IMG/VR virus record: IMGVR_UViG_3300020030_000056
Coordinates: 1-6,414 of that record
Strand: one strand, 5' to 3'
DNA: 6,414 nucleotides
Origin: a virus
In this document: positions 2,593-6,414 of the stretch, piece by piece
Layout: every line of letters begins with the position of its first letter
Numbering within the stretch: the stretch's first letter is position 1
Translations under genes and position numbers: made by a program
The notes under the pieces: model-generated
Database searches by the model: none
The model's input: only the letters and a program-made list of their open reading frames with translations
What the model was told of the DNA's origin: nothing

Positions 2593-4419
2593 TTAGACCA
2601 TACGGTTAAATATATTGTTTGCATCATTCATTTTTTTATGCTTAATCATATCGCGACAGAAGGTAGCAGCACGGAAATCAAGACATTTTTGTAAGTCGCT
2701 ACTTTGCCCATTATCATAGGCACTTCTTGTATCGGGTTTCGCAGATTTAAAGTAATTACAAGTCGCGAGAGGTGGGATTCTGGGGTCATCAAACGGTACT
2801 CGTATTTGTTCTTTAATGGGACGAATAAATCCGTCTGCATACTCGCCGTCTTCACCGATACCAATGGTCGCCATTTCGCATCCTTCGGCTGGTAAATAGA
2901 AATACCGAAGCATAGGGGCAGACAAAGTCTGTTGTATTCGCAACGAATCACACATTCGTACATAGTCCGATTTCTTCTCATATTCTATTCCTGTTTTAAT
3001 GATAAATATAATACGATTGGTATAAGGATCAAGATTGCCTCCAATGAAAGGCAGATGCCAATTCCTGAGGAACTTACTGACATAAAGGAATAACCGATAC
3101 AATTTATTAACATAAGATTCAGTGTCGAAATCAACAGAACTAAAACAAAACCTAGTAGAACACCTAGCAGCATGTAAAACAATCTCATCATCATTAAATA
3201 AATTATTTTTAGTTAATGTAAGATATTTATAATAAGCACGGGTTATAGATAAAATAGAATCGGAATCATAAGCTATAATACCGAATCTTGCAATTCTTTT
3301 CGGCGCATCTGCAACAGCTCGAATAATTCTAGCAATCGCAACAGCATCGTCATAGCGAGCACTTGAGAATCGGGGGAGTAAAGTACGGATATACGACATA
3401 GGGGGAGTTGATTTAACACTAATCCCGTTGAAGTTATAGATTCGTCCATTAACGACAGAATCGATTTTTTGTTCAATCGCGTGATAGACGTCTTCACCTT
3501 CCTCAAAAACCTCGCCTTTCTCAAAAAATCCAAGAGACGCTCTTTGTCGGGGTTTAAATGCACAGCATGCTCGATATAATAAGGGAGCAGAACTAAGGCT
3601 GTTAACGTAACTCGCAACGTACGATGAAGCTCCACCGCGGGAAGTCTGAAAATCTGAACGACCGAACTTCCAACTCTTATCATGACACTGTCGTAATACC
3701 TTTGAGATTTGTTCCGAGTTTGTGAATAATAAGATATGATAATGCGGGCGGAAATGGACTGGTCCGTATTCACCCACAGCGTAGAAGTGTAACGTTTCAT
3801 AAGAACCTAAAGCTGTTTTTAAATGTTTACGTAATCGTTTAATATAGTTCTGAACATCGACATAATTCAGATAAGGGAGAAGATTATCTCCGTATCTAGC
3901 GGAAAGCTCTCCTTCTTTACCGTAAGGTGTAGCGGACTTCGTCTTAGCAATAAAGGAACGGATAGCATCCATAGAAAGAAACCAATTATCCTTAACTGGC
4001 TCATATTGAGATGATTCGCGGTTATACGGCACTGTACCCTGTACTTGTGTAAAGAATATATGACACAAGCGAGATGTATCTGAACAACTATATTCGGATA
4101 CCGGAATATACGAATGTTTTTCATAACCAAAAACTTTATCTCCTGAAATACTCAAAGCATCTTCATACTCACTATGCAGAACCTCACAATTCATCAAAGG
4201 AACATGCTCGTTATCATAAGTAAGTGTCACAAAATAAGAATACTTAAAAGCACTTCCAGCGGTCTTCACACGCATGGACGCTTTTTGAGCACGCTTATGA
4301 ATACAGTAATCACATTGTCCGCAGTCTACAGCAATACGATGACCTGTGTAACGATTAGTTATAAAAGAGCGATGCTGGCAATGATCAGCAGCTTTAAGTA
4401 ATTCAGGAGTATATTTCAT
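2593..4419 (-). CDS. Replication initiation protein (VP4 / gpA-like HUH rolling-circle endonuclease)
   Basis: 608-aa ORF. Motif I FVTLTYD is at aa 63-69 (nt 4213..4233). The HUH motif RPHYHILLF has H-Y-H at nt 3736..3744. The double-tyrosine motif SYVASYVNS has Tyr codons at 3619..3621 and 3607..3609 and closely resembles the phiX174 gpA YVAKYVNK catalytic site. There is an N-terminal Cys/His cluster, HCQH...CGQCDYC. Confidence 0.94.
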   Translation of the reverse strand: MKYTPELLKAADHCQHRSFITNRYTGHRIAVDCGQCDYCIHKRAQKASMRVKTAGSAFKYSYFVTLTYDNEHVPLMNCEVLHSEYEDALSISGDKVFGYEKHSYIPVSEYSCSDTSRLCHIFFTQVQGTVPYNRESSQYEPVKDNWFLSMDAIRSFIAKTKSATPYGKEGELSARYGDNLLPYLNYVDVQNYIKRLRKHLKTALGSYETLHFYAVGEYGPVHFRPHYHILLFTNSEQISKVLRQCHDKSWKFGRSDFQTSRGGASSYVASYVNSLSSAPLLYRACCAFKPRQRASLGFFEKGEVFEEGEDVYHAIEQKIDSVVNGRIYNFNGISVKSTPPMSYIRTLLPRFSSARYDDAVAIARIIRAVADAPKRIARFGIIAYDSDSILSITRAYYKYLTLTKNNLFNDDEIVLHAARCSTRFCFSSVDFDTESYVNKLYRLFLYVSKFLRNWHLPFIGGNLDPYTNRIIFIIKTGIEYEKKSDYVRMCDSLRIQQTLSAPMLRYFYLPAEGCEMATIGIGEDGEYADGFIRPIKEQIRVPFDDPRIPPLATCNYFKSAKPDTRSAYDNGQSSDLQKCLDFRAATFCRDMIKHKKMNDANNIFNRMV

Positions 4420-4730: not shown

Positions 4731-4810
4731 AATCCGATAGCATTAAGAATGTAACCAAGAGCAGCAGAAATAGCACCAATTACAATTTTCCAAACATTAT
4801 TACTTTTCAT
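4727..4810 (-). CDS. 27-aa hydrophobic (single transmembrane-like) peptide; candidate holin-like or membrane partner of the M15 peptidase
   Basis: ATG at complement 4808..4810. The product is MKSNNVWKIVIGAISAALGYILNAIGL. 18 of 27 codons end in T, matching the genome-wide coding bias. The TGA stop (4727..4729) overlaps the peptidase ATG (4728..4730) as ATGA, which suggests translational coupling. It is too short for the ORF track and corresponds to the C-terminal end of track ORF 4727..5068. Confidence 0.55.
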   Translation of the reverse strand: MKSNNVWKIVIGAISAALGYILNAIGL

Positions 4811-4994: not shown

Positions 4995-5110
4995 AATTGT
5001 AAAATTTTAAATGTTAATAATTTAATGAGTTGGTTTCTACAGGGGCAAAGGAAAAAAGTATTTTTCAAATAAACAAATAATTTGGAGTTTTTTTTTGGGA
5101 ATTAAGATTC

Positions 5111-5402
5111 TACAGCTGGGTGTGAGTTGTGCGTTTATGGACAAGAGAAAGGCGAAATTGAGATGATAACTCAATTTTCCTTCGGACACAACTAGGGGCT
5201 TCGCTTAAATAACAAAGCGGATGTATACAGGGTGTATAGACACGGCAGGTCAGATAGAACCTGCCTTTGCGCACCTACGTGCTAAAATACCGGAGCGGAA
5301 CGCTCCTCTAAGGAAGTCGCTCCGCTCCATTTTATACCAGGCCCTACGCGGGCGGCGGGTGTATATCCCTCAAGCGCCGGGATTGGCTTCTAGTCCTGAA
5401 GA
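5111..5402. other. GC-rich, hairpin-dense non-coding island (candidate complementary-strand origin, structured RNA or recombination site)
   Basis: No ORF with coding bias on either strand. Hand count gives 147 G+C in the 290 nt of 5111..5400 (about 51%) and 88/150 (about 59%) in 5241..5390, against roughly 37-45% in coding lines I spot-counted. Helices paired by eye are listed here. (a) 5125-5131/5187-5193, 7 bp, enclosing 5155-5162/5170-5177, 8 bp. (b) 5202-5206/5215-5219. (c) 5224-5229/5233-5238. (d) 5244-5250/5259-5265, 7 bp. (e) 5292-5299/5321-5328, 8 bp. (f) 5353-5357/5375-5379. Confidence 0.6.
5283..5328 (-). terminator. Candidate intrinsic terminator for the minus-strand transcription unit
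   Basis: The minus strand reads GGAGCGGA-(21 nt, partly paired)-TCCGCTCC followed by GGTATTTTAGC. That is an 8-bp GC-rich stem followed by a short interrupted U-tract (UAUUUU), located downstream of the last minus-strand ORF. The U-tract is weak. Confidence 0.3.
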
Positions 5403-5558
5403 TCATCGTGGAATAATATGATAAACCGGGAAATAATTAAGAGTTAAGGATTTATGCTTTTCCTCATAACAACGAATTTGGTCAAACACCTCATCCAAAG
5501 TTTTAAACACATAAGAAAACATCACATGTTGACGATTCATAATACGTAATTCAAACAT
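5403..5558 (-). CDS. Hypothetical 51-aa protein (below the ORF-track length cutoff)
   Basis: ATG at complement 5556..5558, 11 nt after the VP2 stop (5570..5572). TGA at 5403..5405. My translation is MFELRIMNRQHVMFSYVFKTLDEVFDQIRCYEEKHKSLTLNYFPVYHIIPR. About half the codons end in T, consistent with the genome's coding bias. No recognisable motif. Confidence 0.45.
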   Translation of the reverse strand: MFELRIMNRQHVMFSYVFKTLDEVFDQIRCYEEKHKSLTLNYFPVYHIIPR

Positions 5559-5569
5559 AACTATAAGTT

Positions 5570-6414
5570 TTAATAACCAATACCATTAGCTGAAGAGGGA
5601 TTACCACGAGAACTAAATTTGGGACGAGGAATATTCTGAATAAACTTCGTACCGTAATCTATAGTATTACGAAGGCCATAAGAATTAAAATCCTTTTTAG
5701 CATTTCCAGCAGACCATTTATAATAGTCACGAATAGCCTTATTCTTAGAATATTCAACACCCTTACGGATTCCAACATTTTTATAATCCCAAAGAGAATC
5801 ATAATACTGAGTATAATAAGCCATATTAGTAGCACTAATCAGAGCATCAGCAGTACGAAGAGCAATAGAATTATCAATTTTCTGACCCAAAGTCTGAGCA
5901 GAAATCTGAATAGCACGCTTTATTTCAGTACGAACCTGTTGCTTAGTTAAAGCGCCTTGCTGAACTAAGTTATACAAATACTGAGACTTTGTAAACAAGT
6001 CTGCTTGTTGTTGAGAATCCATATACTTATTCAGGATAGCTTGAGCATCAGACTGTAAATAAACCTGAGTAGTCTGAGCAGCCGAAAGCTTTCCTGCCGT
6101 AACAGCGTTCTCCAGTCGCTGACGCTCCATAGATTGGTCTAATTCAGCAGAAATACGACCTGTCTGCTTATTCCAATAACCAGATTCACCGATACCTATC
6201 TGCTTATAGTTCGTATCACCTTTCATCTTTTCAATCATATATGGCGTCATAGCATTAATCTGGTTAGACTCAGATATAAGTTTCTTAGCTTGAGCAAATG
6301 AAGCCAAAGCAGTATCCACACTCGAAAAGTCAGGATGAAAAGCCTGATACGGAATAGGATTGACAGCAGAAGCCTGAGCACCAGAAGGTGAAGAACCTGA
6401 ACCAGCACCAGTCA
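5570..6414 (-). CDS. DNA pilot / minor capsid protein VP2, C-terminal part (6294..6414 duplicates 1..121; same gene as 1..371)
   Basis: The frame is open from the window end down to TAA at 5570..5572. The track start at 6319 is a GTG (Val in ...DFSSVDTALASFAQAKK...) inside the continuous frame, not a real start. The product is Gln/Ala/Ser-rich and predicted helical, typical of microvirus pilot proteins. Confidence 0.88.
   Translation of the reverse strand, partial: TGAGSGSSPSGAQASAVNPIPYQAFHPDFSSVDTALASFAQAKKLISESNQINAMTPYMIEKMKGDTNYKQIGIGESGYWNKQTGRISAELDQSMERQRLENAVTAGKLSAAQTTQVYLQSDAQAILNKYMDSQQQADLFTKSQYLYNLVQQGALTKQQVRTEIKRAIQISAQTLGQKIDNSIALRTADALISATNMAYYTQYYDSLWDYKNVGIRKGVEYSKNKAIRDYYKWSAGNAKKDFNSYGLRNTIDYGTKFIQNIPRPKFSSRGNPSSANGIGY
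6294..6414. repeat. Terminal redundancy, copy B (identical to 1..121)
   Basis: Exact 121/121 identity with 1..121 by direct comparison. Confidence 0.97.

Follow-up and report, generated by a model that had tools for sequence, protein, structure and literature searches.

A conserved, structured non-coding island of Bacteroidales-type microviruses as a candidate replication-control region

Phages with single-stranded DNA (ssDNA) need a complementary-strand origin, at which host enzymes convert the packaged strand into a duplex. To our knowledge, few phages of the human gut are as common as the Alpavirinae-like microviruses, whose cis-acting elements (origins, promoters, terminators) have not been defined. 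In phiX174 the F-G intergenic hairpin, which serves as complementary-strand origin, ori(-), and as assembly site of the PriA (n') primosome, overlaps the terminator T_F. The primase hairpins of G4, St-1 and alpha3 carry GCGAAAGC or GCGTTAGC mini-hairpins. Such GNA/GNNA mini-hairpins are found at the primase-dependent complementary-strand origins of these three phages, at RSF1010 ssiA and at the ssDNA promoters of N4, and, as DNA, mini-hairpins of the types d(GCGNAGC) and d(GCGNNAGC) greatly exceed their RNA counterparts in stability (PMC13037366). For other microvirus clades, conserved intergenic hairpins have been proposed as complementary-strand origins (PMC9865509). Here we describe a hairpin-rich non-coding island of about 290 nt at positions 5111..5402 of IMG/VR virus record IMGVR_UViG_3300020030_000056; the whole 6,414-nt stretch that was analysed is called the window.

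The island is most likely a cis-acting replication-control region of a Bacteroidales-type (Alpavirinae-like) microvirus. More specifically, we assign a probability of about one half to its being a structured replication-origin region of the viral ssDNA, that is, a complementary-strand priming site which possibly also holds the nick site of the replication protein Rep. This function is favoured because the island is the only sizeable structured non-coding region of the genome (as judged from the list of open reading frames (ORFs) and a folding scan), because its structure is under selection on the sense strand, because it contains covarying GNA mini-hairpins and because it is better conserved than the proteins.

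Conservation, structure and strand of the island

The island could be aligned in 36 phage records of GenBank and in the majority of 52 IMG/VR loci, which had been reached via the adjoining peptidase gene, and a motif taken from it was present in at least 120 gut-metagenome contigs, nearly all of 6.0-6.3 kb. Together these three sources yielded 183 distinct full-length copies. Over 56 loci the identity to the window amounts to 87% for the island (90% for 5301-5400), compared with 79% for the major capsid protein (MCP), 82% for Rep and 75% for the AT-rich spacer. Purifying selection on the island is stronger than on the genes, and few parts of the genome are as constrained. On one side the island adjoins a variable slot, on the other the fast-evolving spacer. 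ORF51 and its surroundings (to 5559-5600) align in 0-4% of the 56 related loci, in contrast to 85% for the adjoining island; the stretch from the pilot gene to the island has the appearance of a hypervariable accessory slot, sharply bounded at 5402/5403.

A first-pass annotation of the window had described the island as compositionally foreign and had named a chimeric assembly insert as a conceivable explanation. The rise in GC content is real, since the computed values (50.7% for 5111-5402, 58.7% for 5241-5390 and 39.4% for the genome, with 22.4% in 4995-5110) match the earlier hand counts of about 51%, 59% and 40%. Foreign in the sense of acquired DNA it is not, for the island is vertically conserved in its lineage and its GC sits in the stems. 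A chimeric insert is refuted, as more than 180 independent assemblies, obtained in several studies and from several hosts, contain the conserved island. Because it is conserved across relatives beyond the level of capsid and Rep, the island is neither an assembly insert nor a recent acquisition.

Folding of both strands with RNA and with DNA parameters placed the island clearly below shuffled controls, with z-scores of -3.6 (RNA) and -4.4 (DNA) for the minus (sense) strand and of -3.0 and -3.7, respectively, for the plus strand; 0 of 200 shuffles folded as well. When the sense strand was tiled in 43 segments of 292 nt, the three segments overlapping the island were the lowest (z -3.8 to -4.9), and the remaining ones had a mean z of -0.7 with a standard deviation of 1.4. 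The second most negative value outside the island, -3.4, belongs to 892-1183 on the minus strand, at the 3' end of the capsid gene. Since both parameter sets reproduce the helices, the energy parameters do not discriminate DNA from RNA.

Helices were called with RNAalifold and by manual inspection of a 46-sequence alignment (A1). Where the first reading had seen at least six stem-loops by eye, the model comprises eight ordinary helices and a two-stem pseudoknot, all backed by covariation. These ten helices are H1, the H-type pseudoknot, H3, H4, H5, a GCGAAGC mini-hairpin, a long-range helix, a CCGAAGG mini-hairpin and H7. In A1, 99.1% of 2567 cells are standard pairs, and homologues in related genomes show compensatory exchanges at 16 pairs, which changed on both sides (112 cells). 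None of 500 shuffles matches this result, and sliding the partners by 1-3 columns reduces pairing to 29-50%. Every helix is kept in the 183-sequence set. Selection on the structure acts on the minus (sense) strand alone: 174 cells contain G.T on this strand versus 9 A.C cells, which correspond to G.T on the plus strand.

Reading along the sense strand, to which all features described here belong, the whole island (5111..5402) is divided into a 5' domain (5240-5402), TATAC repeats and a 3' domain. Hairpin H1 (5365..5383) pairs ATCSC with GSGAT around the 9-nt loop GGCGCTTGA, which is variable within the clade; columns 23:35 are GC in 155, AT in 20 and CG in 7 sequences. It is followed by a compact H-type pseudoknot (5341..5357; CGC-C-GCCC-GCG-TA-GGGC) with stems 5355-5357/5347-5349 and 5350-5353/5341-5344. 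In the 183 sequences both stems show compensatory changes and almost no violations: columns 46:56 are CG in 164, TA in 10 and GC in 9 copies, columns 51:61 are CG in 171, GC in 7, AT in 3 and CA in 2, and columns 53:59 are CG in 179 and TA in 4. A pairing of columns 46-48 with 278-280, suggested by RNAalifold, was discarded, as it is broken in G46 variants, whereas the local stem 46-48/54-56 is never broken. Likewise discarded was a hairpin at the extreme 5' end (CTTC/GAAG, 5387-5401), whose pairs are not consistently kept in relatives.

The long hairpin H3 (5282..5329) has 15 pairs (5291-5329) and runs into GGTATTTTAG (5282-5291), which gives it a terminator-like appearance. Its 5' arm GGAGCGGAGCGAC, which includes GCGGAGC (5319-5325), is invariant in sequence, and its many G.T wobbles arise in the 3' arm only. 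The GGAGCGGAGCGAC motif is also present in the distant relative L058. The short hairpin H4 (5271..5282; GCAC-loop-GTGC) has columns 125:132 as AT in 143 and GC in 40 sequences. H5 (5240..5270; GC..GGCAGGT / ACCTGCC..GT) is variable among relatives in its distal part.

Two TATAC repeats, CTATACACC and TGTATACATC, lie at 5220..5238 and are unpaired or palindromic; a third copy, GATATACACC, is located at 5358-5365. The only two exact TATACACC copies of the genome and one copy with a single mismatch all reside inside the island on the minus strand, and YTATAYACC was found again in distant relatives. Five relatives (L009, L010, L018, L046 and L053) carry an extra insertion of about 35 nt (A1 columns ~221-255) between the TATAC repeats and the first mini-hairpin, which forms a near-perfect hairpin CCTAGATC..GATCTAGG. 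In seven other relatives the second TATAC copy is missing. Hence, this spacer tolerates the gain and loss of a whole hairpin.

The 3' domain and the genomic surroundings

The 3' domain (5116..5211) is the part of the island that is common to a wider microvirus group. It comprises 96 nt, on which the covariance model R1, built on these positions, scores 116 bits in the window. Its elements follow each other in the order mini-hairpin 1, long-range helix, mini-hairpin 2, H7, pyrimidine tract with CTYGTC, closing strand and ACTCACA. Capsid searches delimit an island-bearing clade with at least 68% MCP identity, and the next relatives reach at most 37%. Four of these distant genomes (L057-L060) possess a GC-enriched non-coding stretch of 175-576 nt after the pilot gene, with mini-hairpins and YTATAYACC, and a profile of the island picks up its 3' third in many distant genomes. 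Of 55 sources, R1 (96 positions) matches 38. Among these are genomes with a Rep of 25-30% identity and four proviruses, namely those of a Bacteroides metagenome-assembled genome (MAG), a Paraprevotella MAG, Phocaeicola plebeius DSM 17135 and a Muribaculaceae MAG. In the wider-group alignment 98.7% of the cells are paired, a figure somewhat inflated by the fitting of this alignment to the R1 model, and 17 of 20 pairs changed on both sides.

Mini-hairpin 1 (5198..5204; GCGAAGC) has a 2-bp stem and a GAA triloop, which is kept in nearly all of the 38 sequences; its closing pairs are GC in 26 and AU in 10, and CG in 31 and UA in 6. The long-range helix (5125..5193) pairs AGTTGTGT (5186-5193) with ACGCACAACT (5125-5132) and encloses a three-way junction. 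Six of its eight pairs changed on both sides across the wider group, and there is no unpaired cell in the 183 clade sequences. Mini-hairpin 2 (5179..5185; CCGAAGG) has columns 297:304 as GC in 89, CG in 64 and AT in 10 sequences. It occurs in the variants GCGAAGC, ACGAAGT, CCGGAGG, CCGTAGG, GCGAAAGC and CCGTAAGG, the majority of which obey the GNA/GNNA loop rule. By themselves, mini-hairpin motifs of this type are not rare, with 11 occurrences found genome-wide versus 5 expected. Hairpin H7 (5155..5177) consists of an 8-bp stem and a 7-nt loop TTAYCNY with a conserved T-W-A start; in the wider group covariation is seen at all eight stem pairs. The unpaired pyrimidine-rich linker (5133..5154) ends in CTTGTCCATAAAC and contains CTYGTC at 5140-5145. 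CT.GTC and the A/T-rich bases after it are at least 90% conserved in the 38 wider-group sequences, with linker variants in L058-L060 and L141, and the ACA after the closing helix is conserved as well.

Two of the database entries deserve a remark. L141 (CAVBFV010000077.1, 11.3 kb, from a Lachnospiraceae bin) carries a divergent 3' domain at 6622-6700 (R1 23.6 bits) together with a microvirus Rep; the contig, perhaps a concatemer, could derive from a microvirus and have been mis-binned into a Firmicutes MAG. In L057 (PP511330, Dulem virus 257) the coding sequence (CDS) 3581-3784, annotated as hypothetical protein, spans the 3'-domain homologue at 3650-3747 (R1 51 bits). This CDS is unlikely to be a real gene.

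The window is a circular microvirus contig, the first 121 nt of which (1-121) are identical to the last 121 nt (6294-6414) as a circular-assembly overlap. Because of this terminal redundancy of the 6,414-nt window, the true genome has 6293 nt. According to the ORF list of the window, all large ORFs are on the minus strand. The frame of the pilot protein, 375 codons long, extends from window position 404 across the contig join to 5573; the raw window lists split ORFs here, and removal of the overlap restores a single frame through the junction. ORF51 (5558-5403) is located directly 5' of the island, and the non-coding interval (5402-4995) is followed by ORF64 (4994-4800) as first gene, an M15 peptidase (4730-4422), Rep (4419-2593; Pfam REP_ORF2-G2P) and the MCP gene (2576-849). 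The closest GenBank relatives, with about 85% identity, are unclassified Microviridae from lemur, human and dog samples.

As noted in the first-pass annotation, 408 nt without a conserved ORF separate the ORF51 stop (5403) from the ORF64 ATG (4994). The share of this gap, given there as about 6.5%, is still 6.5% after correction of the genome length to 6293 nt. Its companion statement, that all other junctions are overlaps or gaps of 2-23 nt, has to be amended: ORF64 and the peptidase gene are 69 nt apart (4731-4799), and the compactness outside the island is thus not uniform.

The island directly follows the last gene and directly precedes the AT-rich spacer (4995..5110), which lies outside the island and includes an A9 run (5088-5096), a -7 box and the ORF64 leader. 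The box TTCCTTTG (5046-5053, minus strand), which we take to be of the Bacteroidetes type from the -7 promoter consensus TAnnTTTG, reads TATATTTG or TACATTTG in many relatives. All lineages examined have kept such a promoter-like box, 45-55 nt ahead of the first small ORF. Upstream of the island or of the 3' domain, no conserved box of the Bacteroidetes type was found. Since the only conserved one lies downstream, the main promoter is probably situated after the island. A sense-strand run of 7-10 A, about 20-30 nt after the element, is conserved in most lineages, including the distant L059 and L060; this run could be an unwinding or bending element.

Origin function and alternative explanations

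Starting from the observed conservation, structure, strand, boundaries and position between the last gene and the promoter, we infer every functional step of the following mechanism. The packaged strand is assumed to be the gene-sense strand, as established for phiX174. After injection, this strand would fold into a fixed array of H1, the pseudoknot, H3-H5, the two GNA-triloop mini-hairpins and the three-way junction. The array would stay free of single-strand-binding protein (SSB), and host primase, the PriA primosome or RNA polymerase would enter there, at a defined site, to start the complementary strand. A recognition and nick site of the HUH Rep possibly lies in the 3' domain with its invariant unpaired tracts (CTYGTC..ATAWAC, the TTA loop and ACTCACA), in the TATACACC repeats, or in both. 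H3 may double as a weak terminator of a genome-length transcript, like T_F of phiX174.

A complementary-strand origin was the first of three explanations put forward in the initial annotation. It is the one most consistent with a structure selected on the sense strand only, with the GNA mini-hairpins and with an origin-like size and hairpin density. The Pfam family of Rep, REP_ORF2-G2P, is named after gpII of filamentous phages and was also counted in its favour.

Several observations weigh against an origin. Packaged strand and mRNA are identical in sequence, so a DNA element and a structured RNA cannot be told apart by strand polarity, and covariation and G.T asymmetry fit RNA equally well. 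A 17-nt H-type pseudoknot with two covarying stems is more typical of RNA than of known ssDNA origins. GNA/GNNA loops are found in RNA, too, where GAAA and GTAA represent GNRA tetraloops. There are three candidate nick sites (the CTYGTC linker, the H7 loop and the H1 loop CTTGA) instead of one. Searched with filters off against G4 and phiX174, R1 reached at best 9.4 bits (E=1.3), with no match at the origins, and in alignments with the phiX174 origin the best local matches fell elsewhere than the island. Finally, the argument that the 3' domain lies beyond a terminator and is hence untranscribed had to be withdrawn. Terminator-like sites do precede the 3' domain in the window, L059 and L060, and H3 with GGTATTTTAG was flagged by a lenient terminator scan (1 found, 0.7 expected per kb) but fails a stricter rule. 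Strict hairpin-plus-T-run sites upstream of the 3' domain are present in 16 of 180 genomes (9%) versus 12 of 405 controls (3%). As strict terminators are not general at this position, transcription may span the whole island.

The possibility that the island works as RNA, which we regard as unlikely but worth serious consideration, is the first alternative to be weighed. It could be the structured 3' end of the genome-length polycistronic transcript (a terminator, a block to 3' exonucleases, or both) or a processed or stand-alone non-coding RNA (ncRNA) acting on phage or host. This second proposal of the annotation agrees with the mRNA-sense structure and its well-tolerated wobbles of the G.U type, with the compact pseudoknot and the compensatory changes in both of its stems, and with the terminator-like succession of H3 and GGUAUUUUAG in an island that directly follows the last gene. 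Some mini-hairpin variants are GNRA tetraloops (GAAA, GUAA), and with no strong terminator upstream, the 3' domain is probably transcribed at least by read-through. On the other hand, Rfam 15 searched with cmscan over both strands of the whole window under permissive filters gave no match at E<=1, in agreement with the annotation, which had recognised no known RNA family, and the conserved promoter box is found only downstream. Two-bp GNA-triloop hairpins, which covariation has kept here, are marginal in RNA and very stable in DNA. The invariant 5' arm of H3 and several invariant unpaired tracts suggest recognition by a DNA-acting protein. Moreover, a complementary-strand origin must exist, and the genome offers no other sizeable structured non-coding region for it. 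RNA and origin roles could also coexist, as in phiX174.

A variant that we consider rather doubtful sees a new structured ncRNA of gut microviruses in the island as a whole, or at least in the 5' domain that holds the 17-nt pseudoknot, and a separate DNA origin in the 3' domain. Such an ncRNA could be, for example, a nuclease-resistant 3' end or a regulator of expression in the phage or its Bacteroides host. We know of no structured ncRNA described for Microviridae. ARAGORN detected no tRNA or tmRNA gene. The element is described neither in the literature searched nor in Rfam. Structured origin regions of ssDNA phages are known as a type of element. The island represents a new family without sequence relationship to those characterised so far and belongs to an abundant, uncultured group of gut phages.

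A predominantly viral-strand (+) origin overlaps with the favoured complementary-strand origin, and taken as the main role of the island it appears improbable. Here the TATACACC repeats would be the binding site of the HUH Rep, which would nick within an exposed tract (CTYGTC linker, H7 loop or H1 loop CTTGA) that the hairpins would extrude from supercoiled replicative-form (RF) DNA. Invariant unpaired tracts within a covarying scaffold, three same-strand TATAC repeats confined to the island and a hypervariable insertion slot just 5' of it would suit such a site. Distant relatives have CACCTTGATATCG beside a mini-hairpin in the same region, and the phiX174 origin is followed by CCCCGAAGGGG. 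By eye, a phiX174-type (+) origin could be read in CTTGA..TATACACC..GC-hairpin and in CACCTTGATATCG (L058, L060) when compared with CAACTTGATATT..CTATAGACC..CCCCGAAGGGG. This candidate was rejected, because the alignment is no better than with shuffled sequences: phiX174 4294-4343, containing the 30-mer CAACTTG^ATATTAATAACACTATAGACCAC, aligned to the window and four relatives with a score of 22, which shuffled sequences, averaging 23.3, equalled or exceeded in 162 of 200 cases. The resemblance to the 30-mer is therefore without statistical support, and the H1 loop varies within the clade. Furthermore, unpaired sequence was kept while Rep diverged to about 25% identity, which recognition by a host factor explains at least equally well, and tolerance of G.T on one strand is not required for a site in double-stranded RF DNA.

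The third proposal of the annotation, a host-derived or XerCD site, found no support, and a dif-like recombination site or host-derived DNA is very improbable as identity of the island. Krupovic and Forterre proposed dif-like att sites upstream of Rep for Bacteroidetes proviruses (PMC3091885). Related Bacteroidales microviruses are temperate and use dif-like sites in the same non-coding interval. Four proviruses (L145, L139, L146 and L144) are each enclosed by imperfect direct repeats at a distance of 6.2-7.2 kb, which contain TTAAACATAA-type sequences; in L145 dif-like repeats are found at 7125-7153 and 13580-13608. However, the right-hand att copy follows about 9, 47, 87 and 400 nt, respectively, 3' of an intact R1 element. 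The Dulem-257 clade is represented by a provirus on the 35.6-kb gut contig L222. Its junction falls directly after TATATTAAACATTCTGCTGATATT, again downstream of the intact element, and the flank beyond the junction matches DNA adjoining the Phocaeicola plebeius DSM 17135 provirus. The dif-like site of this clade, TATATTAAACATTCTRCTGATATT, is located about 85 nt after the element (L057 ~3805-3830; L222 3688-3712). Since the repeats lie 9-400 nt 3' of an intact element, att is a separate module of the AT-rich spacer and not the island. In the window, the non-coding region 4995-5402 contains no dif-like match beyond chance, and its clade was not found integrated. Neither blastn against 72,556 plasmids, which gave no similarity to the island, nor an exact search for conserved island motifs in 185,579 representative prokaryotic genomes, which gave no match, points to a host origin.

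A hidden small protein gene or an assembly artefact is extremely improbable: small ORFs exist (5221-5421 on the plus strand; 5110-5274 and 5037-5189 on the minus strand) and GenBank lists a hypothetical protein over the homologous element of Dulem virus 257, but the small ORFs within the interval have no Pfam or PHROG match, relatives do not keep the frames (of about 250 indels, 191 have a length of 1 nt), substitutions track base pairing rather than codons, and the number of independent assemblies speaks against an artefact.

Significance and comparison with known systems

With this analysis an element of about 290 nt is delimited and provided with a model at base-pair level, as is a 96-nt core common to lineages whose proteins are 25-37% identical and to proviruses of Bacteroides, Phocaeicola, Paraprevotella and Muribaculaceae. 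If the island is indeed a complementary-strand origin, it offers a concrete substrate for the priming of ssDNA replication in Bacteroidetes, a process of which we know no study. The element can also serve as a nucleotide-level marker for the phage group, as a required part when synthetic Bacteroides microviruses or ssDNA vectors are built or resurrected, and for the correction of database entries in which hypothetical proteins span it. The dif-like attP of temperate members is recognised as a separate adjoining module, which the clade of the window lacks.

Among known systems, the origin of G4 (and of St-1 and alpha3) shares with the island the location in an intergenic block (F-G in these phages) of a microvirus on the packaged strand, the stable hairpins and a mini-hairpin of the GCGNNAGC/GCGNAGC type. 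In the window the hairpin cluster is intergenic and covarying and shows the G.T asymmetry of the sense strand, which is assumed to be the packaged one. GCGAAGC (5198-5204) and CCGAAGG (5179-5185) represent the mini-hairpin, and a third, GCGGAGC (5319-5325), is embedded in H3; the mini-hairpin of the G4 genome itself was read as GGCGAAAGCC. The likeness would extend to the task of an SSB-free entry site for host priming. In contrast to G4, the island is about twice as long, contains a pseudoknot and a three-way junction, and belongs to a phage of Bacteroidales hosts.

In phiX174 the intergenic hairpin is ori(-) on ssDNA and terminator on RNA, and H3 could likewise fulfil both tasks. The two differ in that phiX174 has a single hairpin of about 55 nt instead of ten helices and carries its (+) origin inside gene A. 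In the phiX174 genome (L270; 4329-4343) the 30-nt viral-strand origin is directly followed by CGCCCCGAAGGGGACG, a GAA-triloop hairpin like the mini-hairpins of the island.

Rolling-circle plasmids possess single-strand origins (sso; types ssoA/T/U/W), which are orientation-specific, highly structured non-coding ssDNA elements of 150-300 nt, at which host enzymes prime the lagging strand and which are usually located just upstream of the Rep nick site. The ssi signals and Frpo of conjugative plasmids are structured ssDNA priming elements as well. RSF1010 ssiA has a CCGAAGG mini-hairpin identical to mini-hairpin 2. The island differs from ssoA in that the hallmark CS-6 (TAGCGT/A) is absent from the 408-nt non-coding region, and none of the plasmids searched is similar to it.

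The intergenic region of the filamentous phages M13, f1 and fd contains hairpins A-E with the packaging signal, the (-) origin, which is an ssDNA promoter recognised by RNA polymerase, and the (+) origin nicked by gpII; for microviruses we know of no packaging signal. Filamentous phages belong to another virus realm and have another morphology. In both cases, however, a hairpin-packed non-coding block of several hundred nucleotides lies between the last and the first genes of an otherwise compact genome, and the Pfam family of the microvirus Rep bears the name of gpII. In temperate relatives a dif-like attP is found beside the block, as in CTXphi-type phages. Thus, the proposed arrangement of a (-) and possibly a (+) origin in one block would resemble the filamentous intergenic region or a plasmid sso next to its double-strand origin (dso).

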